A stretch of DNA of 60,086 bases from Candidatus Pacearchaeota archaeon (GCA_018303755.1 JAGVXO010000008.1:1-60086); one strand, 5' to 3'; shown: positions 2,381-49,835, counted from the stretch's first letter. Numbers and translations: made by a program. The notes: generated by a model from the letters alone, not told the origin.

Positions 2381-2512
2381 CCCGTCGTAGTTTAACCTGG
2401 TAGAACCTTCGGCTGTAGATGAAATCACCACCCGACTTAAAGCATAAAAGCTAAGAATGACGGATGGTCAGCGGTTCCCGAAAGGTCGGCGGTTCAAATC
2501 CGCCCGACGGGA
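2381..2512 (+). tRNA. tRNA-Tyr(GTA) with a 58-nt intron at 37/38 (about 2419-2476)
   Basis: Acceptor CCCGTCG/CGACGGG, anticodon stem TTCGG/CCGAA, T-arm GGCGG-TTCAAAT-CCGCC; bulge-helix-bulge formed by CTGT:GCGG and TGA:TCA. Confidence 0.9.
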
Positions 2513-4249: not shown

Positions 4250-4938
4250 ATGACATTAATAAGCATATAAAAAAGTTGATTTCCATAAGAAGGGAAAAGC
4301 ATCATCCTTTGGTGCACCATATCCATAAAAAATACAATATCTCCAGAAAAACTCTTTTTTATATTAAGGAATATGGGCCACATTCTCATGTTGTAAAAAC
4401 AATAATGAAAGAAAGCCTCAAAATTTTATTCCTTGCATCGATAATAAGTTCACTCGGAGGTTTCGCACTTGAATTTATTAAGCCCCTATTTGTTTCATTT
4501 ATCCCCCTAGTTATAATGCTCCCTGCACTAAACAATATGATTGGGGCTTATGGTGCAATTATATCTTCCAGATTTACAACTCTTCTCCATGAAGGAAAAG
4601 TAGGGAAGAAATTATTTAAGAATGCAGAACTAAAAAATATATTTTGCCAGGTAATGATTATATCAATTATAACAACGATATTTTCTCTTTTAATTTCGTT
4701 CCTGATGTCTTATCTTGGAAAGGGGTTAGATTTCAATATTGCTTTAAAAATAGTGATTATCAGTTTAATCGACGTTATGTTCCTTATATGCCTGATTTTT
4801 ATCATTTCAATATTTGCTGGAGTTTATTATTATAAAAATAATGAAGATCCAAATAATTTTTTGATTCCAATTACGACATCAATTGCAGATTTTGGCAATA
4901 TGGGAATTTTAGCCGTTTTGATAATAATATTTTTATAA
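4246..4938 (+). CDS. MgtE/SLC41 integral-membrane domain protein (subunit 2)
   Basis: LPALNNMIGAYGAIISSRFTT and EDPNNFLIPITTSIAD; overlaps the previous gene's stop. Confidence 0.8.
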   Translation: MNDINKHIKKLISIRREKHHPLVHHIHKKYNISRKTLFYIKEYGPHSHVVKTIMKESLKILFLASIISSLGGFALEFIKPLFVSFIPLVIMLPALNNMIGAYGAIISSRFTTLLHEGKVGKKLFKNAELKNIFCQVMIISIITTIFSLLISFLMSYLGKGLDFNIALKIVIISLIDVMFLICLIFIISIFAGVYYYKNNEDPNNFLIPITTSIADFGNMGILAVLIIIFL

Positions 4939-4952
4939 AAAAAATAAAAAAA

Positions 4953-7193
4953 TTAGGCAAGAACTTTATCTGCCATTTTATCTTCAAGAGATTTATTCTT
5001 TACTGGGCTTATTTCTTTAGGTGTTGGCGTTGTTGAAGTTGCCACTTCAGCAGGAGTTTCTTCTATCTCCTGCCAATTTCCCACTACAATATCTCCTACA
5101 GGTTTTTCCTGCTTGAAATAAAGCTGATTGACAAAGCTTAAATCGTCTAGTTTGTTCATCATTATTTCTGATTCCGATATTGTGTACAGCACATCTCTTA
5201 TATATAGGCTTCTCCTTATCTCTTTGTTCCAATAGTCAAAGTAATAACCGCTTTTGATATAGATTTGGTCATCCTCAACGTGTGAGACTTTTCCTCTAAG
5301 TACAAAGCCATTAGCCAAGTCAATATTATAGACATAAGCACCTTGGAAAGTTACTTCTCCATAACTCCATGCATTTTGCGCAGGAGTTTTATGTTCTCTC
5401 ACAGTTATTGGTAGCACAAGCAGTCCTTTTTCTTTGTCAAAAAGGAAAGCTTTAGGGTCCCTTAATACGGGAGAATCAGTTCCTCTGTCTCCGATAGTAA
5501 CTTTGTACATCTCTACTGGATTACTTACATCAGTCACATCAAAGATGGCCATCTTAACTCCCTGATACCACGCAAAGTCAGTTTCTTCACCTGTTTCAGA
5601 TTTTGCCTCTTCAGCTTCCTTGCCTATTCCTATGAGGTGGTTTTCATCATAGGGATGCAGGTAATCAGAGTATCCCGGAATCTTGAGTTTTCCAAGCACA
5701 TTGGGGTTTGTAGGATTCGACATATCGATTACAAACAATGGGTCTGTATTCTTGAAAGTAACCATATATCCTCTGTCACCCATGAATCTTGCAGAATATA
5801 TTGTTTCTCCTGGTGCAAGCTCTTCAAGCTTTCCAACAAGATTCATTTCAGGATCAAGCACATATACATTATTTGTGGGTCTCTGTGTTTGTCCATTTCC
5901 GAGCCATTGCCCATCAATGGTTGTAGCTATCCTAAAATTCAGTTCATACTCATCCATTGAATACTGGTTCAGGACTCTTCCATTGACTTTGCCAGTGCCT
6001 ACATATTTTATATTTCCGTCTTCAAGATGGAATTTTGTTATTGCTGTCTTTTGTGTCATATCTTCTTTTATTTGTGTATCATTGACAGGCATTCCTACAT
6101 CTTCAACAGACTCATACTGTCTCCAATAATAGTTTGGATACATAGTTTGCACAATGTACAAATTATCCTGAGATGCAAAAACATTCTCTCCGGATCCTAC
6201 TATCAGTTCCTTCTTTGCTTCTAAATCATCCAAAGAGATAGAAGCAAGAGTCAGTATGCTTCTTGCTTGTACAGGGTCGATATATCCTATATCTATGCAT
6301 TTTTTTGAAGGTACAAAATCTTCTTTTGTTAGATTCTCCTTTTCAACTATGCTTTCTCTATACATTGGAATCATATCACTGCATTTAGCTACCGGTCCAT
6401 AATAGCGAGGATACGAATTCACGACAAAATAGACATCCTCATCAATCATTCTTGAAGTCAGATAATTTCCTTCAAAATCAAAGCTCTTCAAGAACTCAGG
6501 CTTCTCTTTATCTGAAATATCGTATACTTTTACTGAAGTTGCACTCATATACCATTGTTGCGGATAATAATAATCTGCTGATATTTTTACTTCAGAGGAT
6601 GCATCTCCGTTTACACCTGTCTGTGTTCTTTCAGCTTTCACTCCTTCGGCACCAGTGCTTAACAATGGGCCGTTATAGTTGGACTGTCCGAAAAGCACAA
6701 GATTATCTCCGTTTATGAACATCTCATTTATGTAGAAGTTATTATCTTCTATAGTTGAGATTATCTCTGCATCTTCAGCAGGATATGCCTCTGCTATATG
6801 CAATATATTGTGCGATATCGCATAGATATATTGGCCGTCAGTTTTCACGATATCTGCCTCATCAACTCCAGAAACTTGAACATTCGTTGTTGAATATACG
6901 TTTCCTGATGCTGAATCAGCAGATTCGGACTTAGCTGAAGCTGCGTCGCCCGCATTCTGCGTTAATGGCACATCCCCTCTATATATACCGCCATATTCAT
7001 AATTTCTGCTTTCGTTAAAAACTTTCTCGAAAGCTGTATCTGATTCAAATCTTTTTAATTCCTGAAATTTGTACTGATATTCATTGTTTATTCCAGGCAA
7101 TATATTCTCGCATCCGGAAAATATTGTCGCAACAAACATTAGGAGTACAAAAATCGCAAATAATTTATTTTTCATTTTATTGCCCTCCTTCAC
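4953..7193 (-). CDS. Secreted/lipid-anchored beta-propeller domain protein (COG4880-like)
   Basis: Signal peptide ending FSGC; YSTTNVQVSGVDEADIVKTDG, LNQYSMDE, GETIYSARFMGD, LKIPGYSDYLHP motifs. Confidence 0.85.
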   Translation of the reverse strand: MKEGNKMKNKLFAIFVLLMFVATIFSGCENILPGINNEYQYKFQELKRFESDTAFEKVFNESRNYEYGGIYRGDVPLTQNAGDAASAKSESADSASGNVYSTTNVQVSGVDEADIVKTDGQYIYAISHNILHIAEAYPAEDAEIISTIEDNNFYINEMFINGDNLVLFGQSNYNGPLLSTGAEGVKAERTQTGVNGDASSEVKISADYYYPQQWYMSATSVKVYDISDKEKPEFLKSFDFEGNYLTSRMIDEDVYFVVNSYPRYYGPVAKCSDMIPMYRESIVEKENLTKEDFVPSKKCIDIGYIDPVQARSILTLASISLDDLEAKKELIVGSGENVFASQDNLYIVQTMYPNYYWRQYESVEDVGMPVNDTQIKEDMTQKTAITKFHLEDGNIKYVGTGKVNGRVLNQYSMDEYELNFRIATTIDGQWLGNGQTQRPTNNVYVLDPEMNLVGKLEELAPGETIYSARFMGDRGYMVTFKNTDPLFVIDMSNPTNPNVLGKLKIPGYSDYLHPYDENHLIGIGKEAEEAKSETGEETDFAWYQGVKMAIFDVTDVSNPVEMYKVTIGDRGTDSPVLRDPKAFLFDKEKGLLVLPITVREHKTPAQNAWSYGEVTFQGAYVYNIDLANGFVLRGKVSHVEDDQIYIKSGYYFDYWNKEIRRSLYIRDVLYTISESEIMMNKLDDLSFVNQLYFKQEKPVGDIVVGNWQEIEETPAEVATSTTPTPKEISPVKNKSLEDKMADKVLA

Positions 7194-28658: not shown

Positions 28659-28773
28659 TGCCCCCGACAGGATTTGAACCTGCGACCCCTAGCTTTCTTC
28701 GGCTGCGGGATTATAAAAACCCGCTAGCGATTTTTAGAAGGCTAGTGCTCTATCCAGGCTGAGCTACAGGAGC
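28659..28773 (-). tRNA. tRNA-Arg(TCT) with a 40-nt intron at 37/38 (28695-28734)
   Basis: Acceptor GCTCCTG/CGGGGGC, anticodon stem CTAGC/GCTAG, BHB central helix CTTC:GAAG. Confidence 0.9.
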
Positions 28774-35907: not shown

Positions 35908-36459
35908 ATGGAAAAACAAGATAAAGAATCAGTTATGAGTAAAACCAAAATAAGGGGACTTTCACAAAGAGAAGTAGAAATCATGGCTTGGCTTGAGTTT
36001 TATCAAAAGTACTTTTTTAAATCTAAAGAGATTAAGCAATTTTTTAGCAACAAAAATAATCTTTATAGGGGAATACAAAAGCTTCTATCTAAAAAAAGAA
36101 TAATTAAGCTTAATCAAAATAAATATTATCTTGTTCCAATTAAAGCCAAGTCTGGAGCATGGATAGAACATGATTTTATGGTTATAGATGAAATCTGCAA
36201 CTCAGGAAATTATTACATTGGTGGATGGAGTGCGGCTAATTATTGGCGTCTTACAGATCAAATCCCTTCTTGGATAGATGTATTTACAACAAATAAAAAA
36301 GGAAGAAAAATAATTCTCAATAATAAAATTCTATTTCACCAGCTTAGAAAAATAGACAAATCAAAATATGTGATAAAAATGATAAATGGACATGAATTTA
36401 AAATATTAAATAAAAGAGAAACTAAAAAATGGTTGAAATTAAGAGAATACCTGCTATAG
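35908..36459 (+). CDS. Type IV TA antitoxin, AbiEi-like
   Basis: N-terminal wHTH-like region, YYIGGWSAANYWRLTDQIP motif; overlaps the AbiEii gene. Confidence 0.75.
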   Translation: MEKQDKESVMSKTKIRGLSQREVEIMAWLEFYQKYFFKSKEIKQFFSNKNNLYRGIQKLLSKKRIIKLNQNKYYLVPIKAKSGAWIEHDFMVIDEICNSGNYYIGGWSAANYWRLTDQIPSWIDVFTTNKKGRKIILNNKILFHQLRKIDKSKYVIKMINGHEFKILNKRETKKWLKLREYLL

Positions 36460-37232
36460 AATTTGAAGATATATTAGCAAGAACAAAGTTTAATCATTCT
36501 AAGCTGACTAAGGATTATTTTCTTACTCTAATTCTATATTTGATTAAAGATGTAGAAGGAATTTATTTTAAAGGTGGAACAGCTTTAAATAAGATTTTCT
36601 TAAATCATGCGAGGCTATCAGAAGATATAGATTTTACTTTAACAAGAGAGGTTTCTGAAGTTAAGAAAGAGATAATCCCAATCATTGAAAAATCTGGCTT
36701 ATCTGACAAAATAAGTGAAGATAAAAATGTAGAAGGGTTTCTGAGAATAATTGTTCATTATACTGGATTCGATGGTGAGAAAGAAAGTGTTTTCATTGAT
36801 TTAAACCAAAAAGGAAAACTAATTCTTCCATCAGAACTTCATAAAATCAATCATTTTTATTCGCCATTTATTCCAGAATTTTCTATTAAAACTTTAGCAA
36901 GAGAAGAACTGGTTGCTGAAAAAGTCGCTGCATCAATTAGGAGAAATAAACCAAGAGACCATTTTGATGTTTATCAGATAATTCATACAGGTATTCCCAT
37001 CAAGATGGAAATTGTTAAAAAGAAATGCTCGGATTCTGGCGATGAGTTCTCTATCATCAAAATGTTCAATAAAGCCAAAACTCTAAAAAACAGATGGGAT
37101 AAAGATATGGGTTCCCTTATCTCTGAACCTATCTCTTTTCAAGAAGTCATGAAATTCTTAGCCAAACACTTTAAACTCAAAGACGAAAAAGAAAACGCCA
37201 AAAACGCCAAGAAGAAAAATGAGAAAAGATAA
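36429..37232 (+). CDS. AbiEii/AbiGii nucleotidyltransferase toxin
   Basis: FKGGTALNKIF..RLSEDIDF, AEKVAA..RNKPRDHFD. Confidence 0.9.
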   Translation: MVEIKRIPAIEFEDILARTKFNHSKLTKDYFLTLILYLIKDVEGIYFKGGTALNKIFLNHARLSEDIDFTLTREVSEVKKEIIPIIEKSGLSDKISEDKNVEGFLRIIVHYTGFDGEKESVFIDLNQKGKLILPSELHKINHFYSPFIPEFSIKTLAREELVAEKVAASIRRNKPRDHFDVYQIIHTGIPIKMEIVKKKCSDSGDEFSIIKMFNKAKTLKNRWDKDMGSLISEPISFQEVMKFLAKHFKLKDEKENAKNAKKKNEKR

Positions 37233-37525
37233 TTAAAGCAGGTGCATATAATTTACGCTTCGAACTTTTAGTTGAGGGGGATTAACCCGCATTTTTATAA
37301 ATTAATTTCAATTTACTTCGTGGCCTGCAGGAGTTCGGCTTGTTCACCCATTGTCACCCATCCCCTGCCCCTTCCCTCGAGGGAATGGGACGTTGTTATC
37401 TGATAAAACGGATGGTAATTTATGATATCATCTATTTTTTAACATCTAAATCTTAAAACTCTATATTCTCGTGTCAAACAAAAGATTTATAAATACCAAT
37501 AAATTGGTTAATATAAACCAAATAG

Positions 37526-38179
37526 TTGGTTAATACATGCCACAAAACAGGACTAAAAATGTTAACACAAATACAGCTTAGATTATTTGAACCCTTAACG
37601 AGGAATTTGCTTAAAGAGTATACTATTAAAGAAATAAAAGAGTCTTCTGGTGAAAAATCAAATAATGCAATAACTCTCGCTTTAAAGAAATTTAAGGATG
37701 AAAATATAGCTAAAGAAAGAAGAATCGGAAGATCTTTGCTTTACATGCTTAATACAGATAATGAGGTTGTTTTTAATTATATTCAGATGATAAATACTCA
37801 GAAAATCCCTAAAACTGCTCTAAGAGCAATAGAAAGAATAAAAGAAGAGGTAGAAAAGCACACATCATTTTTTTCTATAGTCATATTTGGCTCTTACGCG
37901 ATAGGAAAACAAACTAAAGACTCTGATTTAGATGTAGCGGTTTTTATTGAGGATAATAGCAAGAAAAAAGAAATAGAATCTGCTATAAAATCATCTGAAC
38001 TTAAAATTCCATTAGATATTCATGGTCATGTTATTCCTACTGATGAATTTTTAGAGATGCTGAAAATAGATGAAGAAAACTTAGGTAAACAGATAGCAAG
38101 GAAACATTTATCAATTTATAATTCCCCTATATTTTACTTATTATTGAAAAGAGGCATAAAAAACGGATTCAGATACTAA
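37526..38179 (+). CDS. wHTH-MNT nucleotidyltransferase antitoxin
   Basis: IFGSYAIGKQTKDSDLDV; true start may be ATG 37559. Confidence 0.85.
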   Translation: MVNTCHKTGLKMLTQIQLRLFEPLTRNLLKEYTIKEIKESSGEKSNNAITLALKKFKDENIAKERRIGRSLLYMLNTDNEVVFNYIQMINTQKIPKTALRAIERIKEEVEKHTSFFSIVIFGSYAIGKQTKDSDLDVAVFIEDNSKKKEIESAIKSSELKIPLDIHGHVIPTDEFLEMLKIDEENLGKQIARKHLSIYNSPIFYLLLKRGIKNGFRY

Positions 38180-38642
38180 ACTATATTTGGAAAGGGCAGA
38201 GAACGAATTAAGACTTGCAGAAATGATAATGCAGTTAAGCGTAAATCTTGATATTCAAACAAAAATACCAGACATAAGCAAAACAGACACTTATTTCAGT
38301 TCAGTTATATCGCATTCATATTATTCTATCTTTTATACAGCAAAGGCTTATTTGATTATGAAAGGAATAATAACCAAAATCCCTAATGAACACAAGAAAA
38401 CCTACAATCAATTCAGAAAGATAGTTTCACAAGGGATTGTTGATAAAGAACTGCTAATTTTATATGATGAGGTATTAGTAAAAGCCGATAACTTGCTAGG
38501 GATATTTAAAGTTGAAAAGAAAAAACGAGGATAGTTTACTTATCAAAGAATAGCTCAAGCAAATCTTGAACCTGCAAAGGAAAGTCTAGAAAATGCAAAG
38601 ACTTTCTTAAAGCACATTTACGATTTGTGTGATAATGCTTAA
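38163..38642 (+). pseudogene. HEPN-domain toxin interrupted by in-frame TAG at 38532-38534
   Basis: YLERAENEL, SHSYYSIFYTAKAYL, EHKKT; the frame continues 35 codons past TAG; putative start reads ACG at 38163. Confidence 0.75.
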
Positions 38643-38812: not shown

Positions 38813-41800
38813 TTATGCAGAAACTTTCGCAACAGCAGTATCAATTCTTGTATTCGCAGCTTTAATCTTCTTTAATAATTCTCCAGACTTCTCTGTTTTA
38901 ACCGCTGTAACAACTCCATCAATCATACATCCAACTTCCCTTGAATTAAGATTAAGCAAAATATCATTTCCTGCTTTAACTGCAAGAACCGCTCTGTCTT
39001 CACAGGAGTATTTACTCAAAGAATTAGCATTCAAAGCATCAGTAATAACCAATCCATCCCAACCCCCAAATTCCGGCATGTTGTGGGGATTAAGCCCAGG
39101 CACAAATACAGCAGGAGTTTTTTTGTCCCAAGGAACATCCTTTCCATTATAAATAATATTACTCATCATAATTGCGTCTAAATTATCTCGTAAATCAATA
39201 AATGGTTTCATATTAGTAGTTTTAATTGATGTAAAAGATTCATCTGCAGTAACGATATTTTCATCACTATTTCCATCCTTATCAGATTCATGGCTAATAT
39301 ATCCGGGAAAATGTTTTCCTGTGACTAAAACTTTTCCTGTCATATCTGAAATAAATTGTGTTGCGCAAAGTTTAATTCCCTCAACACTATTAGAAAATGA
39401 TCTCTTATTATTTCCCATAAAATCTGTATCTTCTGCTATATCCAACACAGGCGCAAAATCAATGTTAATACCCATATTATACATTTTTTGCGCAGCATTA
39501 GAAAATGCATTATTAAACGCTAAAAAATCATCCCCCGCCAATGCCTCGCTGCATAATGTCCGAGGATATCCAAGATTAACCCCTAATTTTTCCAACCTAT
39601 TAACTCCCTTACCCTCAACATCTGCTGAAATTAATTTAATCCCTTTCTTCTTGCAATCTGCGATTAATGTTTTAACTTGATTTTCAGAGTTAACATTGTA
39701 TCCCATAATAATAACTCCTCCAATATAACTTCCCTTATATTTGACAATATCCTCGTCACAAGTCGTTGTAGCACCAGCAGAAGGCACAGTCATTATCATT
39801 TTCGCAATCATTGGAACAAGTTCAGCCTCGGTTGGAATTTCGGTAGAAGTTGTTTGTGCAGGGACAGGTGTAGTAGAAGACGAACTACCCTCTGCAGAAC
39901 GAACAATAATTACAACTTGTTCAACATCTTCCTTATCAGATGTTCCATCACCAGTAATATCGCAACTCTTTTGTTCTTGTGGAGGGAATAAACCAAAGAC
40001 ATCTATATAATCAACAAAAGATTCAATAAAATTTTTCTTATCATTATTAATTGAGTCTTGCAATGCCTGCGCATCTGCCATTGTGAGAATTCCATCCGCA
40101 TTAATGTCTCCATTTTCAGGACAAGTCCTAACGCCCGTGGTTGAAATGGGGGTTGTGGGAGTTGTGGAAGTATCACTAAAAACCCCTGCATTTTTAATAG
40201 CATTATATTTTTCAACGATATTATTACAATAATATACATGAGTTGTTTCTCCATTTATAGTTTGATCATCTTCACAACGACCAAAATATTTTTTTGCAGC
40301 AGCTTTAATTTTTTCATCAGTCCATCCATTAGAATCAATCGTACCTGCGCCCTTCTTTAAATAAACTCCTGCAGCATAAAATGAATCTTTAATTTTTAAT
40401 GGGCTCAACAAAGTTTTACCCATTATTCCTCCAGTTTCCTCAATTACTTCTTCCCACGTGCCCACATCAGGATTAGCCTTTCCTGTGGGGGTAGTTTCTA
40501 TAATCTCCAAATTTGGATAATTTTTTTTCAAATAATTTTTACCTATTCTAAACTGCATTGGTCCAAAAACATTATATCCATTATTCCAATTACATACTCT
40601 TCCAGAAGGAGGGTCAATATCCTCGCTTATCCAACCTCGAACATCATCTAGATTATTTTTTGCATCATACCATAAATGAGTACCTTTTGATTCCTTACCA
40701 TCTCCACATTCTTGATGAGAAATTGCTGCAAGAAGTTCTGGAGGCACACCAGTTTTTTTAGATGCTTCTTTAAATAAAGGAATTAAAATATTTGGAATCT
40801 CAATATTTGTCCCACTAACTGCGGTTGTACCAGTCGCACTCGCCGTCCCCTGCCCATCCCTCTCCTCGCTCGTCGTCTCCTCTATCGTCGTTTTCGTCTC
40901 ATCATCTTCATGCTTCTCAACCAGCCACGCATCAAACAACGCCCTCGAATATCCATCATAAGCCCAGGCTTTTGTAAATTCAATGCGTGCTTTCTGAACA
41001 TCTGTTAATTGATAAGTATTTTCCAAGCGAGTTGCTTCTGTGTTTAATTCATTAATTAAATTTTTATAATCCTCTGATGAAACTGCTTCAAGCATAATAT
41101 CATCAGCAATTTCATTGAATGTATAAAAAGCAGTTCTTTCACTATCAGAACTAAGTAATGGTTTTACTTTTCCACCATCAACCTTAGCAGCTTCATCTGC
41201 TGCTTCATTAAGAGAAGCAATAGTTTTATCTAATGCTCCGTAATTTCCATCAGTTATTGCATCGCTTATTGACTCTCTGTCAATCCAGCACCTTATTTTT
41301 GTGCTGTCGCAATAACCAACATCTTGCCATCTTTCAGGAGATGTCGGCTCGCCAGGATTATTTGTTGCGCAAACTCGAGTAATTCCTCTGTTATATAATT
41401 CAGGCATCGCTGCTTCTTCAACACCTGATTGGCGATTTGGATTTAGCAAACCATAAGCACTTGCAGTCCCTGAAATGCAGGTTTTCTCTGAAGTTATTTT
41501 TGTATTGCCTGCCTGTTGTTCAATATATTTATCTCTTAAATAATTCAAAGCAAAGCTTGTTGAAACCTGCTTAAACCCGCACTCTTCCTGCGTATTAACT
41601 CTTACACAAAGTTGTTTAAATCCAGAAGGCGCAATAAAGTCCTTTGCCTGGTCAACATATCCCCCTGCAGGAACATAGCCAGTATCAACAACATAACTTC
41701 CCGAACTTTCAAAATAAGAAATTCCGGTTGAATCTTTTAGATAAACACTATATTGTGTTCCTTGATCTGCTCCTGAAAATATATGATAATAAACTTTATA

Positions 41801-44800
41801 GTGTGATTGAGCAGGAACTGTTGCAGTTGTCTGCGGAATCTCATCAAACCACGCAGCAAACTGAGGAGGAGAATCTGGCTCTATTAGTGCCTTAAATTTA
41901 TTAGGATATGCAATAGAAACAAAAGATTTGCATACAGAAGTTCCAACTTCCTGAGTTGAACGAACCCTAAATGCATTCATTGCATTTATAGCATAATAAT
42001 TTTTAAAATAATCAATTGATTTCTGCATATTTTCCCACGCACTGGCAACACTCAAGTATTCACCTCCGCCTCTCGCTCCCTGCCCTGTAACTTTCTCAAG
42101 AAGTTTAGGAATAATTGTATTTATTAAAGGAGAAAACTGCCTCCAGAAAAATTCGCATTTGTATATCGCTGTAACTTCGTCGCATATTCCCACATATCTT
42201 CCTGTATTAATATTTTCCTGCAAACAATCTCTTGATGCTTCAAGTATAGAAGTAAAGCTGTCAATTCCTGCTTTTATTCCAGTTAAACAAACAGGTACAA
42301 TAATTCCCTCTTTTGCATTAGGCAGACATAGAAAAATACTTCCGACAATTCCTGACTGCACAACATCGCTGACATGATATTTTCCTCCAAGATTGCATCT
42401 GCTCGCAGGGCATATCACAGGATCGCAGACATTAAACATTATCTGGCAGTCTTTAGGAGACATAAATTCTGCGCATGTAGTTCCAGGAATGCTTGCTGCA
42501 GGATTTCCAACTTTGTATTTATTTCCTCCAATACTAATTTCAGATATTCCTGCTTTGTATTTAGAAGATGCCTCTTCAAGCACCTTTATTGCCTTGCCTA
42601 CCCATGAATTTGTTTCCTGTTCTGACAAACCATAAAATGTTCCAATTTTTTGTCCTGTAAATGCATTAAACTGCTGACATATATCATCGCCAAATCCAGC
42701 ATCAAACTCCTCTCTTCCATTTGTGCCAACATTGCAAAGCCAGAAACTTGAAACTCTTCCTGACTCTTGAAATGCTTCAACATTTCCAAATGAAGAAATA
42801 ATTGGTTTTGTAGCAGCATACCATCCCTTATTAGTATCAATAGGCACAAGCGCAGCAAGTCCTTTATACGGCTCTGTTTCATGATAACGAACTTCAGGAT
42901 TTGTATATTTATTATTATAAGAATTTGCGTCGACTTTTGTGAATTGAGAATGCTCTGCAAGAACTTTTGTTTTTATTTGATCAGAAACTAAACTTCCATC
43001 TGTCTCAAAAACCCCAACAGGGGTATAAATATCAGAATCATCTATTGGTTGCAAAGTTACAAAATATTTTTTTATTTCAGAACCATCTCTATATAAAACT
43101 GCATGGACAGGAGTTCCTTGTGTAATTTGTCCTTTAGTTGCAAGAGCAGTATACCCATTATATACCTCACCCGGAATTTGCTGTCCCAAAGCATTAAGAT
43201 CTTTCGGCAAACTTACTCCAAGTCCTACTCCATCTCCCCACCCAGCAGCATTTGCCATTTCTGATGCCACACTCGTCGGATTGTTTGCCTGCTCTTCGCG
43301 CAGCCACGAAAGCTCACCATAAAGTTCGCTTTCTGCCATTGCTTTTATTCTCACATTAGTATCTTTTGATTGATAAACCCTTAAAAGAAGTTCTGTTCTC
43401 TGCAAATCACTAACTCCGACACTTCCTGGGTCTAATCCTTGCAGAATATTATTAGCATCTTGTGCAGTTAATTTCTTATCTTTATCATTTGCATCAATAA
43501 GCTCACTTACAAGAGAATATTTCTGAACAGCACCCAAATGTATCCCAATTGCTTTTTCTGTATCAACTGACTCTCCTCCGAAAATTCCTGATTTTGTCAC
43601 AGCATTTCCTGCTTCTTCTCTTGCCTTTATATCTTTATCATGCTGTGCTACAATTTGCTGATAAAACTTTACATCTGCATCAATTGCATCAGCATTTTTT
43701 CTGTAACAATCTTCCAAGTCATTATATTTTCCACTTGTCATTCCATATTTTTCAACCAAATCTCCAGGATTTCCGCTATTCGCCAATGCCTGATTACATA
43801 GTTCATTCCATCCTCCCTGCCCTTTCATTATCTGCTGTCTCGCAATTGCCCCTCCATTCATTCCTTCTGCAAGTGCCTTAACCTGCATAACAGCCGAAGT
43901 TGCAAAGCACGCAGCTTTCATTGTCTTGACAACTGTTCCAAGTGACTCAGAAATATTCTGCCATTTTGCAATGCTTTCATTTAATCTTTTTATTCTTTCA
44001 AGCGACTTTTCAGGATTAAGCTGTATTAATCTTTTTTCAATTCCAATTGCATAACTTACATTAACCACAGAGCTGACATCTTTAGTCACAGAATCAACTT
44101 TCACAACTGCCACTCGTTTCAAATTTATTTTCTTAACATAAATATTTTTGTTGCAAATTGCTTTTTGCGTTCCGACAGGAATTTCTTCAGATGCCTTCTC
44201 GGTTTTTCCAGCAGTATCAGTCGCACAGTTTGCAGAAACTTTTATTGAGTTGTCATCAAAAGATTCAAGCTGAATATTTTCACTATCACTATAATCAAGA
44301 TAATCTCCTTCTGTTATCCTCTTTAAATTTCCATTAACATTTACTTCAACACCTTTATCCTCGAACAGCGGCGCTTTAACAGAAACGAGGCGCACAGTAT
44401 GCGAATATCCGTCAATTTCAAAACTTCCTATTGCAGAACTCAAATCAAAATCATTCAATTTTTCAAACTCTGAAAAATCAATTTCGCCTTTATACTTGTC
44501 AGAATATTTTGTTATATATTCATACATTATTTTAAATTGATTTGTTCCTTGCGCAAGGCGGAGCAATTTTTCAACAGAAATTTTTCCATACTTTCCATTT
44601 TCAACAGCAGGATAATCCAAACTGCCATAATTTTCCTCAACATCGCCATAACCCTCTTTTGCTTTTCCAAATACTCCGCTAAATTCATTAGTTATAACTT
44701 CATTTTCAATAGAAGAAAATCCTGAAAAAGTAACTTTTGTTGTATCCTCTATTTCTCCACCTCTAATCATTATAATCTTAAATTTTTTATCCTCTTTTTT

Positions 44801-46120
44801 ATTTTGTTCCTCTATTTTTTTTGCAACATCTTCTGTCTTTGGAGTAAACGAAATTTCCTCTCCGAGATTATTAACCTCTTTTTCAATATCTTTAAATGAT
44901 TTTGGATTTACAGGTTGAACAAGCAGCACAAAATCAGTTGTCTTGTCAAATAATTTTCCAGCATATCCAAAATAATATTCTTCCTTAACTACATCGCCTA
45001 TTGAATACTCTTTTTGCTCACCGCCATCAACACTCAAAAAAACATTTCTTCTTCTCAATTCCAAAGCAAGTGTTTTTCCATTGCAGTCAATTCTCGCGCT
45101 TCCTGTTCCTGCTCCAAACGCCTGAACATCAAGCACTCTGCAGTTATAATCTTCTGCAAATTCAGCTCCTTTAATCACGTCAAAATTATCATTGTCAATT
45201 TCTATTCTCGCAGTCGGCTCAGGAAGTGCCAAATCAGAAAGCGTTGCAGTAAAACCAGAATTGCATAAATTGCCATCAAGATACAAAGGAGAAGAAATTT
45301 TCTTTGTATTAATTGTGAAACTTGAAATTCTCCTGTCAACATCCATATAAATTCCTATCTGCGCTTTGTCAGAACTTACAGATTCAACTCTTAAAAATGC
45401 CCTTCCATTCAGAAATGAAAATTCCTTGTATCTCTGATGCCATTCTTCATTTGTTAAAACGGGAATTCGCATTTCATTGACTCCTGTTCCAAATCCAACA
45501 GGCACATCATACTGAATTCGCGCAGTCATATTTCCTGTTACAAATTCAGGCATTGAACTTTCATTATACTGTCTTTTTATTATAAGAACAGCATAACCAA
45601 TATTATTAAAAGCTAAAAACCCGTTGCTATCTCTCTGCTGTGAAAGTGCAGAGCGTGGAGGATAGTATGCAATTCCAGCAAGTCCAGAAGGCGTCTGTCC
45701 TTGCGAAGTTAATATTACATTGCTCATTTTTTCTGCAGCAATAGTTGGATTAACCATAACTGCCTGCAATTTACAATAAACAAGAACATCCTGCTCTTCT
45801 AATAAATCACTTCTCACAACAGCAGGCGTGCATCCTCCTGGTGCTATTTGAACAACAAAATCTTTCCTATCTCTGCATACTGCATTAATGTCAACAGAAC
45901 TTCCTCCATAATACCCTTGATAATTTCCTCCTGAAAAACTTCCAGAAAGTCCAGGTGCAAATGTCTGTGGATTTGATGATGAAAAACTTCCGCTTGTTCC
46001 AGAAGAACTAAATGCACTCGTTGTTTCACTTGTTGTGCTTACAGCATCTTCAGCACTAACAAAAACAGCAGCAGCTATTAAAAAAATTGCAATCAATGCA
46101 AAAGCAAATATTTTTCTCAT
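38813..46120 (-). CDS. Giant exported protein (2435 aa): Cys-rich N-terminal core + lytic transglycosylase-like + dockerin-like + GH3 NagZ-like domains
   Basis: Signal peptide; LLAAISHQEC/GPMQF; two DxxxDG repeats; ISADVEG, NIDFAPVLD, KHFPG, ITDAL, KAGNDILL. Confidence 0.85.
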   Translation of the reverse strand: MRKIFAFALIAIFLIAAAVFVSAEDAVSTTSETTSAFSSSGTSGSFSSSNPQTFAPGLSGSFSGGNYQGYYGGSSVDINAVCRDRKDFVVQIAPGGCTPAVVRSDLLEEQDVLVYCKLQAVMVNPTIAAEKMSNVILTSQGQTPSGLAGIAYYPPRSALSQQRDSNGFLAFNNIGYAVLIIKRQYNESSMPEFVTGNMTARIQYDVPVGFGTGVNEMRIPVLTNEEWHQRYKEFSFLNGRAFLRVESVSSDKAQIGIYMDVDRRISSFTINTKKISSPLYLDGNLCNSGFTATLSDLALPEPTARIEIDNDNFDVIKGAEFAEDYNCRVLDVQAFGAGTGSARIDCNGKTLALELRRRNVFLSVDGGEQKEYSIGDVVKEEYYFGYAGKLFDKTTDFVLLVQPVNPKSFKDIEKEVNNLGEEISFTPKTEDVAKKIEEQNKKEDKKFKIIMIRGGEIEDTTKVTFSGFSSIENEVITNEFSGVFGKAKEGYGDVEENYGSLDYPAVENGKYGKISVEKLLRLAQGTNQFKIMYEYITKYSDKYKGEIDFSEFEKLNDFDLSSAIGSFEIDGYSHTVRLVSVKAPLFEDKGVEVNVNGNLKRITEGDYLDYSDSENIQLESFDDNSIKVSANCATDTAGKTEKASEEIPVGTQKAICNKNIYVKKINLKRVAVVKVDSVTKDVSSVVNVSYAIGIEKRLIQLNPEKSLERIKRLNESIAKWQNISESLGTVVKTMKAACFATSAVMQVKALAEGMNGGAIARQQIMKGQGGWNELCNQALANSGNPGDLVEKYGMTSGKYNDLEDCYRKNADAIDADVKFYQQIVAQHDKDIKAREEAGNAVTKSGIFGGESVDTEKAIGIHLGAVQKYSLVSELIDANDKDKKLTAQDANNILQGLDPGSVGVSDLQRTELLLRVYQSKDTNVRIKAMAESELYGELSWLREEQANNPTSVASEMANAAGWGDGVGLGVSLPKDLNALGQQIPGEVYNGYTALATKGQITQGTPVHAVLYRDGSEIKKYFVTLQPIDDSDIYTPVGVFETDGSLVSDQIKTKVLAEHSQFTKVDANSYNNKYTNPEVRYHETEPYKGLAALVPIDTNKGWYAATKPIISSFGNVEAFQESGRVSSFWLCNVGTNGREEFDAGFGDDICQQFNAFTGQKIGTFYGLSEQETNSWVGKAIKVLEEASSKYKAGISEISIGGNKYKVGNPAASIPGTTCAEFMSPKDCQIMFNVCDPVICPASRCNLGGKYHVSDVVQSGIVGSIFLCLPNAKEGIIVPVCLTGIKAGIDSFTSILEASRDCLQENINTGRYVGICDEVTAIYKCEFFWRQFSPLINTIIPKLLEKVTGQGARGGGEYLSVASAWENMQKSIDYFKNYYAINAMNAFRVRSTQEVGTSVCKSFVSIAYPNKFKALIEPDSPPQFAAWFDEIPQTTATVPAQSHYKVYYHIFSGADQGTQYSVYLKDSTGISYFESSGSYVVDTGYVPAGGYVDQAKDFIAPSGFKQLCVRVNTQEECGFKQVSTSFALNYLRDKYIEQQAGNTKITSEKTCISGTASAYGLLNPNRQSGVEEAAMPELYNRGITRVCATNNPGEPTSPERWQDVGYCDSTKIRCWIDRESISDAITDGNYGALDKTIASLNEAADEAAKVDGGKVKPLLSSDSERTAFYTFNEIADDIMLEAVSSEDYKNLINELNTEATRLENTYQLTDVQKARIEFTKAWAYDGYSRALFDAWLVEKHEDDETKTTIEETTSEERDGQGTASATGTTAVSGTNIEIPNILIPLFKEASKKTGVPPELLAAISHQECGDGKESKGTHLWYDAKNNLDDVRGWISEDIDPPSGRVCNWNNGYNVFGPMQFRIGKNYLKKNYPNLEIIETTPTGKANPDVGTWEEVIEETGGIMGKTLLSPLKIKDSFYAAGVYLKKGAGTIDSNGWTDEKIKAAAKKYFGRCEDDQTINGETTHVYYCNNIVEKYNAIKNAGVFSDTSTTPTTPISTTGVRTCPENGDINADGILTMADAQALQDSINNDKKNFIESFVDYIDVFGLFPPQEQKSCDITGDGTSDKEDVEQVVIIVRSAEGSSSSTTPVPAQTTSTEIPTEAELVPMIAKMIMTVPSAGATTTCDEDIVKYKGSYIGGVIIMGYNVNSENQVKTLIADCKKKGIKLISADVEGKGVNRLEKLGVNLGYPRTLCSEALAGDDFLAFNNAFSNAAQKMYNMGINIDFAPVLDIAEDTDFMGNNKRSFSNSVEGIKLCATQFISDMTGKVLVTGKHFPGYISHESDKDGNSDENIVTADESFTSIKTTNMKPFIDLRDNLDAIMMSNIIYNGKDVPWDKKTPAVFVPGLNPHNMPEFGGWDGLVITDALNANSLSKYSCEDRAVLAVKAGNDILLNLNSREVGCMIDGVVTAVKTEKSGELLKKIKAANTRIDTAVAKVSA

Positions 46121-47994
46121 GATGTTTTTACTTCAATTTTTTGAACATCGAGCAATTCATAATTTTTCTGCAACTGCTCTAAACCAACAGGAGGCGGAAG
46201 AAGAGGAACACTTATAGTTACCTTTCTCGAATTTTTCAGCTCATCTTCAAGAATAAACTTTGTTGTTTTTCCTCCTGCAATAAGCGCATTTGAAACTGTC
46301 TGCTCTGGGATATTAATATCAAAACACTGCTCTGTCTTTTTTCCAAAATATCCTAAAATTCCAGGAGATGCAACCATAGTGCATTTTCTTGTGCTTCCTC
46401 CAGGAATTTTCAAAGAAGCTGACGAAAATACACTCACACTTATATTATAAATTCCTTCTGATAATTTTATTGTTTTTTGCTGAGGATAAACTGCAACTCT
46501 CTTGTCATTTTCTCCATCAAAAGAAATAACTGCAATTCCGTTCTTGTCTCTTGCACCAAGCTCAATTCCTCCGACAATCGCTTCAATAGGCAGCTCATAA
46601 ACTTTTCTCATCATTATATTCGCAATTCCAGGGCTGTTTGTAGAAACATAGTAATTAGTTGTTTCATAACCGCTTGCAGAAGCAGTTATTCTTCCATTTA
46701 CGCACTGAGGAAAGTCAGAAGATAAAATCGCATCATTTCCAGAAAGTTTTGTTTTTCCAATAGCGCATTTTTCATTCAGGCATATAAAAGAAATATCTGC
46801 TTCAACAGGATTAATTAAATTATCATAAGTGAAAACATCTATTTTCGTATTTTTATAATTGCAGAATTCGTCCATAGAACTGCTTTCTTCTTCACTTGAT
46901 AATGCAAGGGAATTTCTCGGAACGCTTTTATCAACAACAACTGCAACAGGAAACTGGAATAATTCGCTTCCTTTATACACTTGAATAAGCGCAGGATGAT
47001 AAATATCATAGACAAAATGATAAGGCACATAACAGAATCCTATCACTCCAAGTCCCTGCTCAAGTCCTACTGGCTCTGCAATCATCATACCATTTTCAGC
47101 AGGCCATATTTCAACTCTTGTAGGCCAGGAACTATCATAAATAAACGCAATATTTGCATCGCTGTCAAAATTCAAATCAAAATATCCTTTATATTTTTTA
47201 TCTTTTGCAACGTTCTCATTCCTCAAAGCAGCAAGATTTGCAGAGATTCCTGTTTTTATTTCATCTACAACTTCTTGAGGATTCCACATCAATGGGCTGC
47301 ACGAAAATTCGACGCCTGTCGCAGGCGCATAATTATACATTACATCAACAGCATAATTTTCCAAAAATGCCTCTTTTTTCTCCTTATCATAAATCTCTTT
47401 TGCAGAATTATACAATTCTCCGAATTTAGTTTTTACTTCAATAGTATGTGATTTTTTTACAGCACTCGCATCTGCCTTTGATGCAGAAAGTGCCATAGAT
47501 ATACTAACAACAACCCTCTCATCATATATCTTAGTTTTTACTTCTGGCGTATCACTGTTAATTATAAATCCCTGTTTTCTAAGATTTGAAAAGTCGCATT
47601 TTATTATTTCGGTTTGGATAAAATCAGAAAACTGATTTTCAATCACTGATTTTGATGGTACCTGTTCTTTTATAACTCCATTTCCAGAAACATAATACCA
47701 ATAAGGAACAGGATTTCCAAGAAAATCAAGCTGTGAAGAAAAAGGCGCATAAGAGCTTCCTGGAGAAAAATCAGGCACTTCAATATATCCTGCCTGGCTT
47801 CCTGCAATCTTAGTTGCCTGAATTGTGCTTGACTCAACACAGCTGTCAAAAAGAGTATAAACACCATCAAATTCACTCTGCGCAGAACCTGGGAAAAGTT
47901 TATCTCTAAGCAAAAAAACAGCAACAACCGCTGCAACAAGAACAATCGCGATAATTACAAATAACGTAATTTGCCCTCTTTTAATCATATGCAA
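46117..47994 (-). CDS. Exported protein with class III (prepilin-like) N-terminus
   Basis: KRG|QITLFVIIAIVLVAAVV; stop overlaps the giant gene's start (ATGA). Confidence 0.7.
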   Translation of the reverse strand: MHMIKRGQITLFVIIAIVLVAAVVAVFLLRDKLFPGSAQSEFDGVYTLFDSCVESSTIQATKIAGSQAGYIEVPDFSPGSSYAPFSSQLDFLGNPVPYWYYVSGNGVIKEQVPSKSVIENQFSDFIQTEIIKCDFSNLRKQGFIINSDTPEVKTKIYDERVVVSISMALSASKADASAVKKSHTIEVKTKFGELYNSAKEIYDKEKKEAFLENYAVDVMYNYAPATGVEFSCSPLMWNPQEVVDEIKTGISANLAALRNENVAKDKKYKGYFDLNFDSDANIAFIYDSSWPTRVEIWPAENGMMIAEPVGLEQGLGVIGFCYVPYHFVYDIYHPALIQVYKGSELFQFPVAVVVDKSVPRNSLALSSEEESSSMDEFCNYKNTKIDVFTYDNLINPVEADISFICLNEKCAIGKTKLSGNDAILSSDFPQCVNGRITASASGYETTNYYVSTNSPGIANIMMRKVYELPIEAIVGGIELGARDKNGIAVISFDGENDKRVAVYPQQKTIKLSEGIYNISVSVFSSASLKIPGGSTRKCTMVASPGILGYFGKKTEQCFDINIPEQTVSNALIAGGKTTKFILEDELKNSRKVTISVPLLPPPVGLEQLQKNYELLDVQKIEVKTS

Positions 47995-48059
47995 AATAAA
48001 TAAATCACGTATATAAATGTTATTGGGTTAAGAAAAAAGAGAGTCAGAAGTAAAATAAA

Positions 48060-48131
48060 TGGCCCTGCCAGGAATCGAACCTGGGTTGCTTCCACGTCAA
48101 AGAGGCGTCTTAACCACTGGACCACAAGGCC
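48060..48131 (-). tRNA. tRNA-Val(GAC)
   Basis: Acceptor GGCCTTG/CAGGGCC, loop TTGACGT, T-arm CCAGG-TTCGATT-CCTGG; one C:A mismatch in the anticodon stem. Confidence 0.75.
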
Positions 48132-48437: not shown

Positions 48438-48749
48438 ATGAAAAAACCAAAAACAACAAACAGATTTTGCCCTTATTGCAAAAAGAAAACACTTCATAAA
48501 ATAAAGTTATTATCAACAGGAACTAAAAGAGGAACTCTTAAACGCGGTTCTCTTATAAGAGCAAAATGGCGCCACGCAATGCCTGGTATGGGAAACAAAG
48601 GAAGATACGGAAGCAAACCTCCTATAAACAAATGGAAAAGAAAAACAAAAAGCACAAAAAAACACGTGTTTATTTATACTTGCCAAACCTGCACTAAATC
48701 TCATCAATCTAAAAAAGGAATAAGAGTGTCAAAAGTAATGTTTGAATAA
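48438..48749 (+). CDS. rpl44e: 50S ribosomal protein L44e
   Basis: RFCPYCKKKTLH..KGRYGSKP..KSTKK..YTCQTC. Confidence 0.9.
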   Translation: MKKPKTTNRFCPYCKKKTLHKIKLLSTGTKRGTLKRGSLIRAKWRHAMPGMGNKGRYGSKPPINKWKRKTKSTKKHVFIYTCQTCTKSHQSKKGIRVSKVMFE

Positions 48750-48750
48750 A

Positions 48751-49344
48751 ATGGCTGGAGAAAAAAAGAAATTTTTTGATGTTGAAATACCTTTTATAGA
48801 AAAAAAAGTAGAACTTTTTGCATTTGAGCAGTCAGCGCTTGACAAAAAAACAATTAAATTAGACCTGACAAATCTTCTGAAAGGAAGGGCGCTGGAAATT
48901 AGCCTTTATGTAGAATTAAAAAATAATAAACTAATTGCAATTCCAAAAAAAGCAGAACTTATAAATTCCTATGTGAGAAGATTATCAAGAGGAGGAACAG
49001 ACTATGCAGAAGATTCTTTTCTTGCAGAATGCAAAGATAACCGGATAAGAGTAAAACCGCTTATAATTGCAAGAAATAGAGTTTCAAATAGAGTACTAAA
49101 AGGATTAAGAGAAAAAGCAAAAGAAGAGATAATTCATTATGCGAAGTCAAAAACATTCGAAGAAATTCTGCTGGGAGTAATAAATAACAAGCTTCAAAAG
49201 GAGCTTATGCCAAAACTCAAAAAAATATATCCTGTAGCAGTATATGAAATAAAATTCATAGGAATAGAAAATCCGAAAGGATATGAAAAATACGAGCAAG
49301 AAAAAGAAATTGAGCAATCTGCTAAAAAAGAAAAGGAAGAATAA
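48751..49344 (+). CDS. rps3ae: 30S ribosomal protein S3Ae (divergent)
   Basis: KTIKLDLTNLL, YVRRLSRGGTDYAEDSF, LKKIYPVAVYEI. Confidence 0.75.
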   Translation: MAGEKKKFFDVEIPFIEKKVELFAFEQSALDKKTIKLDLTNLLKGRALEISLYVELKNNKLIAIPKKAELINSYVRRLSRGGTDYAEDSFLAECKDNRIRVKPLIIARNRVSNRVLKGLREKAKEEIIHYAKSKTFEEILLGVINNKLQKELMPKLKKIYPVAVYEIKFIGIENPKGYEKYEQEKEIEQSAKKEKEE

Positions 49345-49835
49345 TGATACAAAAAACACTTGTTCTTATAAAGCCAGACGGAATACAAAGAGGGCTTATT
49401 GGAGAGATAATAAAAAGATTTGAGCAAAAAGGGCTTAAGATAGTCGGAATGAAAATGCTTAAATCTGAGAAAAAATTAGCTGAAGAGCATTATTCAGAAG
49501 AAATTGCGAAAAAACATGGCGAACCTGTAAGAAAAGCGCTTCTTGATTTTATAATAAGCGCACCTATAATTGCAATGTGTATTGAAGGAAGCAGTGCAAT
49601 ATCAAGTGTAAGAAAAATTGTCGGAAATACCTATCCTGGAGATGCAGATATCGGAACAATAAGAGGAGATTATGCGCATGCATCAAAAGCATATGCAAAG
49701 TCAAATGCAAAAGCGCTTCCAAATTTAGTTCACGCTTCTGAAAATGAGCAAGATGCAAAGCGCGAAATCGCACTTTGGTTTGCATCTAATGAAATTAATA
49801 GTTATAAGCTAAGCCACGAGGATTTTATTTTCTAG
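49344..49835 (+). CDS. ndk: Nucleoside diphosphate kinase
   Basis: TLVLIKPDG, GTIRGD, NLVHASE. Confidence 0.95.
   Translation: MIQKTLVLIKPDGIQRGLIGEIIKRFEQKGLKIVGMKMLKSEKKLAEEHYSEEIAKKHGEPVRKALLDFIISAPIIAMCIEGSSAISSVRKIVGNTYPGDADIGTIRGDYAHASKAYAKSNAKALPNLVHASENEQDAKREIALWFASNEINSYKLSHEDFIF

Follow-up and report, generated by a model that had tools for sequence, protein, structure and literature searches.

A giant Pacearchaeota protein with a predicted two-glycosidase head on a conserved carrier: a surface module possibly directed at foreign peptidoglycan

Why would an archaeon encode a giant, apparently exported protein that ends in domains resembling enzymes of bacterial wall degradation? 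The question is raised by a 60,086-nucleotide (nt) stretch of a Candidatus Pacearchaeota archaeon genome (GCA_018303755.1, JAGVXO010000008.1:1-60086; hereafter the window), where 38813-46120(-) is a single open frame of 2435 codons (the giant, P0001) and 46117-47994(-) is a 625-codon frame encoding a partner protein (P0002), the stop of which overlaps the ATG of the giant by 4 nt (ATGA). To our knowledge, no Pacearchaeota or Woesearchaeota is in culture with a known partner from which the hosts and the mode of contact of these archaea could be read. We find that the giant joins a conserved carrier to an exchangeable C-terminal head, which in this copy holds two glycosidase-type domains. At a probability of roughly 0.6, we read the locus as a surface module directed at foreign peptidoglycan, for which we infer anchoring at the surface via the partner, catalytic activity, a peptidoglycan substrate and a biological purpose.

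The initial annotation of the locus proposed an undescribed system, but the family had been published before, and with it the bacterial-wall hypothesis (PMC8204110 and PMC9723730). Castelle et al. 2021 (PMC8204110) described fam00969, a family of proteins of up to 3,000 amino acids (aa) that are predicted to be extracellular, and proposed that it binds and degrades bacterial walls and that bacteria carry some such archaea as episymbionts. A "large lytic murein transglycosylase" and predatory Woesearchaeota are the terms used by Vigneron et al. 2022 (PMC9723730). What, then, does this copy add? The domain order of the initial annotation (signal, carrier, GH23-like domain, dockerin-like pair, GH3) is correct, and the strings it quoted (CDPVICPASRC, CLPNA...PVCLTG, CDEVTAIYKCE, LLAAISHQEC with E1804, GPMQF and DSFYAAGVYL) are all found in the translation at the residues it had named. 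Thr/Ser-rich linkers occur at aa 1740-1775, 1983-2003 and 2075-2105 (all features are placed in Table 1). We read the N-terminus of the giant (MRKIFAFALIAIFLIAAAVFVSA) as a Sec-type signal because it is the only strongly hydrophobic segment in the protein, and this signal and the conserved Cys residues together predict an extracellular carrier.

Is the first module of the head a lytic transglycosylase? Direct searches did not recognize it as such: aa 1772-1982 matched no Pfam or NCBIfam model at E<=1, leaving the gathering score of the PF01464 hidden Markov model (HMM) unreached, the ten nearest relatives that we scanned carried no Pfam domain either, and profile searches against the PDB with a single sequence or with four sequences returned nothing relevant. 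Plain hmmsearch with the profile of the domain likewise missed the SLT heads of sister giants. Deeper profiles told more. A profile search of 1.84 billion representatives yielded 128 relatives, and when a 35-sequence profile was run against the PDB, four of the five hits were goose-type lysozymes aligned exactly at the catalytic Glu (best E 0.025). Alignment by hhalign to the PF01464 heads of sister giants gave probabilities of 92-94% (E 8e-7 to 2e-8) over the whole domain, pairing QEC with QES, GPMQ with GLMQ and KYFG with AYNxG. In addition, a distant family member, P0200, matches Pfam SLT on the same stretch (28.6 bits for a cut-off of 21.3) and three others fall just below. The SLT-matching distant members carry M23, Amidase_2 or C39-like neighbours, and two relatives are encoded on bacterial contigs, where their neighbours are PilMNO, a two-component system, ClpB, a type IV secretion system (T4SS) pilin and a C39-like peptidase. 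In the 35-sequence alignment, E1804 is near-invariant (at least 90% of sequences) and the Gly and Gln of GPMQ are invariant or nearly so. On this profile evidence, the domain appears to belong to the GH23/SLT superfamily with E1804 at the predicted catalytic position; the SLT-like domain of the initial annotation is thus kept at the level of the superfamily, with no Pfam match behind it.

Compared with family 1 lytic transglycosylases and goose-type lysozymes (GH23, PF01464), the domain has the same Glu after the first helix (AAISHQEC vs ...QES) and the same GxMQ motif. It differs by an insertion of 60-70 residues between the Glu and GPMQ and by another after GPMQ, by conserved Cys pairs, by a third motif that reads YFG where AYNxG is expected, and by lying below Pfam detection.

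The last module of the head is certainly a GH3 domain by its profile match (PF00933 on aa 2131-2426, E 1.7e-32, 113.6 bits for a cut-off of 27). Its nearest solved structures are NagZ/YbbD-type GH3 beta-N-acetylglucosaminidases (3sql, 6k5j, 3tev; E down to 5e-19), and its GLVITDAL aligns with GLIVTDAL of 3sql. With the enzymes of this type (3sql, 6k5j, 3tev, 3bmx) it shares the GH3 N-terminal fold family, KHFPG, the D-x-EG..R sugar-binding motif and, in ITDAL, the nucleophile Asp2361. The Bacillus subtilis enzyme YbbD is extracellular, a setting that resembles that of the GH3 of the giant. In contrast, the dyad signature of NagZ, KH[FI]PG[HL]G-x4-D-[ST]-H, is not matched: the giant reads KHFPGYISHESDKDGNSDEN (KHFPGY-ISHESDKDG-N-S-D), with N-S-D at the dyad position, and scores far below the cut-off of the NCBIfam equivalog NF003740 (96.4 bits vs 207). 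Thus, the NagZ-like label that the domain had received holds for the Pfam family and for the nearest structures but not for the dyad.

How unusual is this dyad? Most of 40 stand-alone GH3 relatives with the motif keep D-[ST]-H, and none of the stand-alone proteins is more than 32% identical to the GH3 of the giant. The N-[ST]-D variant (KHFPG[YL]G-x4/5-N-[ST]-D) is common to P0018 (a sister giant), P0291 (376 aa) and P0296 (1,675 aa). Read by signature, the GH3 of the giant is a member of a small conserved GH3 subgroup and not a NagZ, and in this subgroup an Asp probably takes the acid/base role. Members of the subgroup sit in secreted multi-enzyme wall-active proteins; P0296, which is outside the carrier family, combines its GH3 with a polysaccharide deacetylase and NAGPA.

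Such divergence could also mean that either enzyme domain, or both, has lost catalysis and works as a lectin-like wall-binding module for adhesion, given that the acid/base His of GH3 is replaced and that the GH23-like domain is very divergent, with KYFG for AYNxG as its third SLT motif. Against this, the GH3 nucleophile Asp2361, the KH pair and D-x-EG..R are kept, Glu1804 and GPMQ are nearly invariant, and the presence of N-[ST]-D in four otherwise diverse proteins argues for a conserved working alternative and not for decay. We consider dead enzymes quite improbable.

Between the two enzyme-type modules lies a pair of dockerin-like repeats. PF00404 matches it below threshold (E 0.009, 16.6 bits for a cut-off of 22.9); its sole two PDB hits are dockerins, which align to the first repeat (GDINADGILTMADA, E 0.02-0.03) and leave the second (CDITGDGTSDKEDV) unaligned. 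No cohesin (PF00963, E<=0.01) was found in the 82%-complete genome, and a cellulosome-like assembly is thus unsupported. Of the dockerin-like pair in the initial annotation we keep a putative dockerin-type Ca-loop spacer; the dockerin call itself is weak.

Are these modules a fixed part of the protein? The core of the carrier has more than 367 homologues (E near 0), from Pacearchaeota or Nanoarchaeota wherever named; the details of homologues and tails given here are those of the best 120. All 120 align along the whole core at 34-52% identity (995-1742 bits), mostly with 92-100% of aa 80-1760 covered. The core was first described as Cys-rich, which is true in a relative sense only (30 Cys in ~1620 aa), although 28 of these are invariant in the 120-sequence alignment. 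Conservation is also high at aa 1050-1640, where every 50-residue block retains the residue of the giant in 37-69% of 119 homologues.

The tails, by contrast with this constant core, vary. Precomputed Pfam assignments among the 120 gave SLT (13), PF18013 (tail-tip lysozyme, 4), DUF2272 (2) and, once each, Amidase_3, GH73 glucosaminidase, GH3 (in P0018, together with SLT) and TSP_3, the rest having nothing recognised; the P0018 tail also shows an M15-like motif read by eye. In a maximum-likelihood (ML) tree of aa 1050-1640, 21 of the 23 rows with recognised wall-hydrolase heads fall in one clade (support 100/99), in which the head types are intermixed. Several features of this tree bear on head exchange: (i) the giant (GH23-like and GH3) groups with three SLT-headed proteins (support 98/97); (ii) P0018 (SLT and GH3) is sister to a protein with Amidase_3 and PF18013; and (iii) P0007 (PF18013) is separated from P0011 and P0012 (GH23-like) by branch lengths of only 0.05-0.08, with near-identical cores. 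Since near-identical or close cores bear different heads, heads are replaced on an otherwise constant carrier. As read from the tree, the P0007 and P0011/P0012 pair is a case of recent head replacement, and GH3 is an addition that was made at least twice in the carrier family. The conserved core with a variable enzyme tail that the initial annotation had proposed is therefore borne out by the tail catalogue and by the swapping in the tree.

Only P0011, P0012 and P0023 among the core homologues share the GH23-like domain of the giant (45-50% identity). Because the giant and these three nearest head relatives carry the domain without annotation, HMM screens for SLT/GH23 undercount "armed" archaea. 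The armed fraction is underestimated for a second reason, as unannotated tails such as that of P0091 show ES, GIMQ and YYNGW motifs. In P0091, these motifs (ES / GIMQIN / YYNGW) are typical of SLT and come with no Pfam match at E<=0.01; a Pfam scan of the tails of five further members of the family, all of them long and "unannotated", gave nothing. The P0091 tail also has repeated CSDCG..C..EC Cys-knots, which are likewise present in the tails of P0030, P0038, P0045 and P0090 and may represent an undescribed small Cys-rich module.

How are giant and partner inherited? In a sample of 401 genomes of the phylum, the conserved region of the giant was present in 102, almost always as one copy and in open frames of about 1,000-3,200 aa. 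These include 24 of 26 members of the giant's own family and the two genomes sampled from the order's other families. The partner family was present in 329 of the 401 and, in every case checked, lay 4-5 kb from the conserved region of the giant and on the same strand, including in a family (f14) where the giant is barely recognisable. At the conserved locus, a partner of 616-626 aa is always directly upstream of the giant (adjacency in L001, L002 and L003); the two are neighbours in distant families as well. In three long contigs (575-857 kb) the pair lies between S3Ae/L44e and TFIIB/S8e, as in the window. The genome of the window encodes the giant only once, a search there having found no second copy or fragment, and a protein identical to it is on record in 2 contigs (P0003). 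The best explanation of this pattern appears to be that a two-gene surface module passes vertically within archaea of the Pacearchaeota/Woesearchaeota type and that the window carries the local copy. An earlier mention is that of AR20 (Castelle 2015).

The same pattern bears on the idea that the locus is what is left of a virus or mobile element, the giant being its tail-lysin or tape-measure-like protein, to which the PF18013 "phage tail tip lysozyme" heads of sister proteins, the toxin-antitoxin genes next door and a phage tail fibre as best BFVD match might point. That match is meaningless (template modelling (TM) score 0.05, root-mean-square deviation (rmsd) 63 A), there are no virus genes nearby, and the giant has a Sec signal, is single copy, follows the lineage and resides in a syntenic housekeeping locus in several near-complete genomes. 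We reject a viral or mobile origin on synteny and distribution, and its probability is minimal.

What could hold the giant at the cell surface? The N-terminus of the partner, M-IKRG followed by QITLFVIIAIVLVAAVVAVFLL, has the class III signal pattern (a short basic start, a G/Q cleavage motif and a hydrophobic helix of ~20 residues), and partner homologues read KKGQVTIFII and KRGQLAIIII, so that the common N-terminus is [KR]G-Q-hydrophobic. With the gene that immediately precedes the giant in L001, the partner shares 51% identity. It is a type IV pilin-like signal protein, the cleavage of which is predicted from the motif. The coupling of the giant to a pilin-signal gene that the initial annotation proposed is correct, down to the 4-nt overlap. 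Elsewhere in the genome we found a Peptidase_A24 prepilin peptidase (C9:41215, on another contig than the locus) and, on other contigs, two PilB-type ATPases; the locus itself has no pilus machinery genes, and the partner (~620 aa) has no recognisable pilin globular domain. Display on a pilus, as in the initial annotation, is overstated for this locus; anchoring of the giant at the surface via the partner is a candidate arrangement.

Which wall could the head act on? Searches of the 82%-complete genome found neither a Mur-ligase domain nor a SEDS polymerase, and no SLT elsewhere. The absence of Mur ligases and SEDS argues that the organism makes neither murein nor pseudomurein and that the substrate must be foreign; action on its own wall is rejected on the same grounds. 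NagA and NagB were not found either, which leaves feeding on N-acetylglucosamine (GlcNAc) by the standard route, one of the uses first suggested for this protein, unsupported and favours breaching or attachment. As a working mechanism, the giant would be exported and then held at the cell surface via the pilin-like partner. Its head would meet the peptidoglycan of a neighbouring bacterium, where the GH23 domain would cut bonds between N-acetylmuramic acid (MurNAc) and GlcNAc in the glycan strands and the GH3 domain would trim terminal GlcNAc from the new ends. The resulting local thinning of the wall could give the archaeon a hold on a bacterial partner or prey, or access to its membrane.

Alternatively, the head may act on other GlcNAc polymers, for instance detrital chitin or chito-oligosaccharides, or else glycans or pseudomurein belonging to an archaeal host. 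Enzymes of the GH23 and GH3 families of CAZy can act on chitin or chito-oligosaccharides too, GH23 including chitin-active members and GH3 NagZ-type enzymes hydrolysing chito-oligosaccharides; the GH3 of the giant lacks the NagZ dyad and shares its subgroup with P0296 (polysaccharide deacetylase and NAGPA), and there is no direct Pfam SLT match. However, near-same carriers bear the peptidoglycan-specific heads Amidase_3, SLT and GH73 (Pfam), with the M15-like motif in P0018, relatives of the GH23-like domain in bacterial contigs adjoin M23, Amidase_2 and C39-like wall enzymes, and released GlcNAc would be unusable by the standard route when NagA and NagB are absent. We hold another polymer to be an unlikely target.

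The giant could also be primarily a structural envelope or spike protein, with the head as a bacteriolytic weapon for competition or defence and not for attachment or feeding. Indeed, a 2025 PLoS Biology study (PMC12352652) showed by experiment that bacteria are killed by peptidoglycan hydrolases of other archaea, and noted the richness of Nanoarchaeota in these genes. The carrier, for its part, is found as a single copy in almost all genomes of the family and is strongly conserved even where no enzyme is recognised on it. As a protein of 2,435 aa, probably retained on the cell, the giant would nonetheless make a poor diffusible bacteriocin. The mechanism of such a weapon overlaps that of the peptidoglycan-directed surface module and differs in purpose only, and nothing separates killing from attachment; as a reading of the giant as a whole, we find it no likelier than a different polymer.

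Several observations weigh against a peptidoglycan-directed surface module as the role of the giant. For the GH23-like domain, neither Pfam nor the PDB gives a direct match, and its AlphaFold2 (AF2) model from a 4-sequence alignment is of low confidence (predicted local distance difference test (pLDDT) 48.9), Foldseek on the model returning rhodopsins and noise only. The activity and specificity of GH3 are uncertain because the acid/base His of NagZ is absent. About 80% of the tails in the carrier family have no recognised domain and, beyond a single clade, the family is mostly "unarmed", which makes the primary role of the carrier one other than wall hydrolysis. Finally, the source assembly (769 kb, 36 contigs) is incomplete, and absences from the genome are provisional.

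The fold of the carrier, as modelled, yields no functional clue either. An AF2 model of aa 541-1740 from a 40-row alignment (mean pLDDT 70.8) combines beta-sandwiches with helical hairpins of great length and with a region of mixed helix and beta structure that is rich in Cys. Foldseek of this model against PDB and BFVD gave only weak immunoglobulin (Ig)-like sandwiches (ApaG, GH2 Ig domains, CARDB; best E 0.009, TM ~0.06) or meaningless matches, and the carrier has no Pfam or NCBIfam domain. We tentatively suggest, as a possibility that we think doubtful, that the pilin-signal protein and the carrier form an undescribed lineage-wide contact organelle of Pacearchaeota/Woesearchaeota, in which a disulfide-locked aa 1050-1640 would be the working part (for example for membrane engagement or as a conduit into the partner cell) and the exchangeable heads would adapt it to the particular envelope of the bacterial host. 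If this were true, head type would predict host type, and the hosts of many such archaea would be bacteria rather than other archaea.

The surroundings of the two genes are archaeal, with ribosomal proteins L44e and S3Ae, GINS, FtsY and intron-bearing tRNAs in the window (GC ~33%); L44e, S3Ae and NDK occupy 48438-49835. No mini-ORF (open reading frame, ORF) precedes the partner in the window, unlike in relatives with small ORFs there. In the relative L001, two tandem paralogous ORFs (225 and 266 aa, with near-identical N-terminal halves) and a 56-aa ORF, at 4306-5805, precede the partner; these have no counterpart in the window. On the other side, two toxin-antitoxin-type pairs at 35908-38534(+) converge on the 3' end of the giant: an AbiEii nucleotidyltransferase toxin (36429-37232) with a 183-aa ORF upstream, and an MNT/HEPN pair (37526-38179 / 38187-38534). 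Rfam gave two long tRNA matches, at 2381-2512(+) (132 nt) and 28659-28773(-) (115 nt), neither of which ARAGORN reported; they are probably intron-bearing archaeal tRNAs.

Table 1. Features of the giant, its partner and the adjoining upstream region (positions in the window).
Feature	Position	Strand	Basis
Giant gene P0001, 2435 aa: Sec signal, carrier core, three-module head	38813..46120	-	ORF and translation
Predicted Sec-type signal peptide, aa 1-23 (MRKIFAFALIAIFLIAAAVFVSA)	46052..46120	-	Sole hydrophobic 19-mer window >1.6 in the protein; cleavage site read from sequence
Ser/Thr/Gly-rich low-complexity stretch, aa 24-79	45884..46051	-	Sequence; poorly conserved among homologues
Conserved carrier core, aa 80-1700, 28 invariant Cys	41021..45883	-	Homologues, conservation profile
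Most conserved core part, aa 1050-1640 (CDPVICPxSRC, LCLPN...PVCLTG, ICDE..Y.CEFFW)	41201..42973	-	Conservation profile
Helical carrier end and Thr-rich linker, aa 1701-1771	40808..41020	-	Helices in AF2 model; linker sequence
Divergent GH23 (SLT / goose-lysozyme-like) domain, aa 1772-1982; predicted catalytic Glu1804 at 40709-40711	40175..40807	-	Profiles
Dockerin-like pair of Ca-loop/helix repeats, aa 2004-2069	39914..40111	-	PF00404 below cut-off
GH3 N-terminal-type domain, aa 2131-2426; KHFPG at 2269, nucleophile Asp2361 (ITDAL)	38843..39730	-	PF00933
Partner gene P0002, 625 aa as listed; likely ATG at 47988; class III (type IV pilin-type) signal KRG/QITLFVII	46117..47994	-	ORF, N-terminus
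Putative TATA-like box, TTTATATA, 22 nt upstream of partner ATG	48010..48017	-	Read from sequence
tRNA-Val(GAC), 65 nt upstream of partner; fills the place of relatives' small ORFs	48060..48131	-	tRNA scan

For the question of hosts, the locus supplies concrete reagents: a head of ~670 aa, two point mutants (E1804Q and D2361N) and the partner protein. Moreover, head swapping on a constant carrier could mark host switching.

How does the module compare with known systems? The initial annotation likened it to polymorphic toxins, and the layout does agree, with a constant carrier, swapped C-terminal enzyme modules and, in the tree, repeated head replacement between close relatives. The likeness ends there: the giant is single copy and vertically inherited, with neither a cassette array nor orphan cassettes, no pre-toxin or release domain was detected in it, and its effectors are wall hydrolases, which would act outside the target cell. 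An immunity gene is also missing directly downstream, where the next ORFs of at least 80 aa (38187-38534 and below) are on the opposite strand and belong to the MNT/HEPN pair. A second comparison is with the minor-pilin/tip-adhesin complexes of type IV filaments and with archaeal pilin-signal surface proteins, which share the class III signal of the partner and, in the genome, a prepilin peptidase and PilB-type ATPases; the partner differs from such complexes by its size, by the missing pilin globular domain and by the missing pilus genes at the locus. The closest counterpart is fam00969 (PMC8204110), to which the giant corresponds in its homologous core (E near 0), lineage, size range, predicted extracellular location and proposed role. 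The papers on fam00969 describe one family with one lytic transglycosylase domain, whereas the SLT of the giant is an unannotated GH23-like domain with no PF01464 match; "pilin" and "pili" have 0 occurrences in PMC8204110, and in the searchable literature we found no pilin-signal partner, no constant carrier with exchangeable heads, no GH3 heads and no unannotated GH23-like domain. With the family and its general hypothesis published before, this copy brings a refinement and not a discovery: specific to the giant is a two-glycosidase head, formed by a hidden GH23-like domain and a non-canonical GH3.

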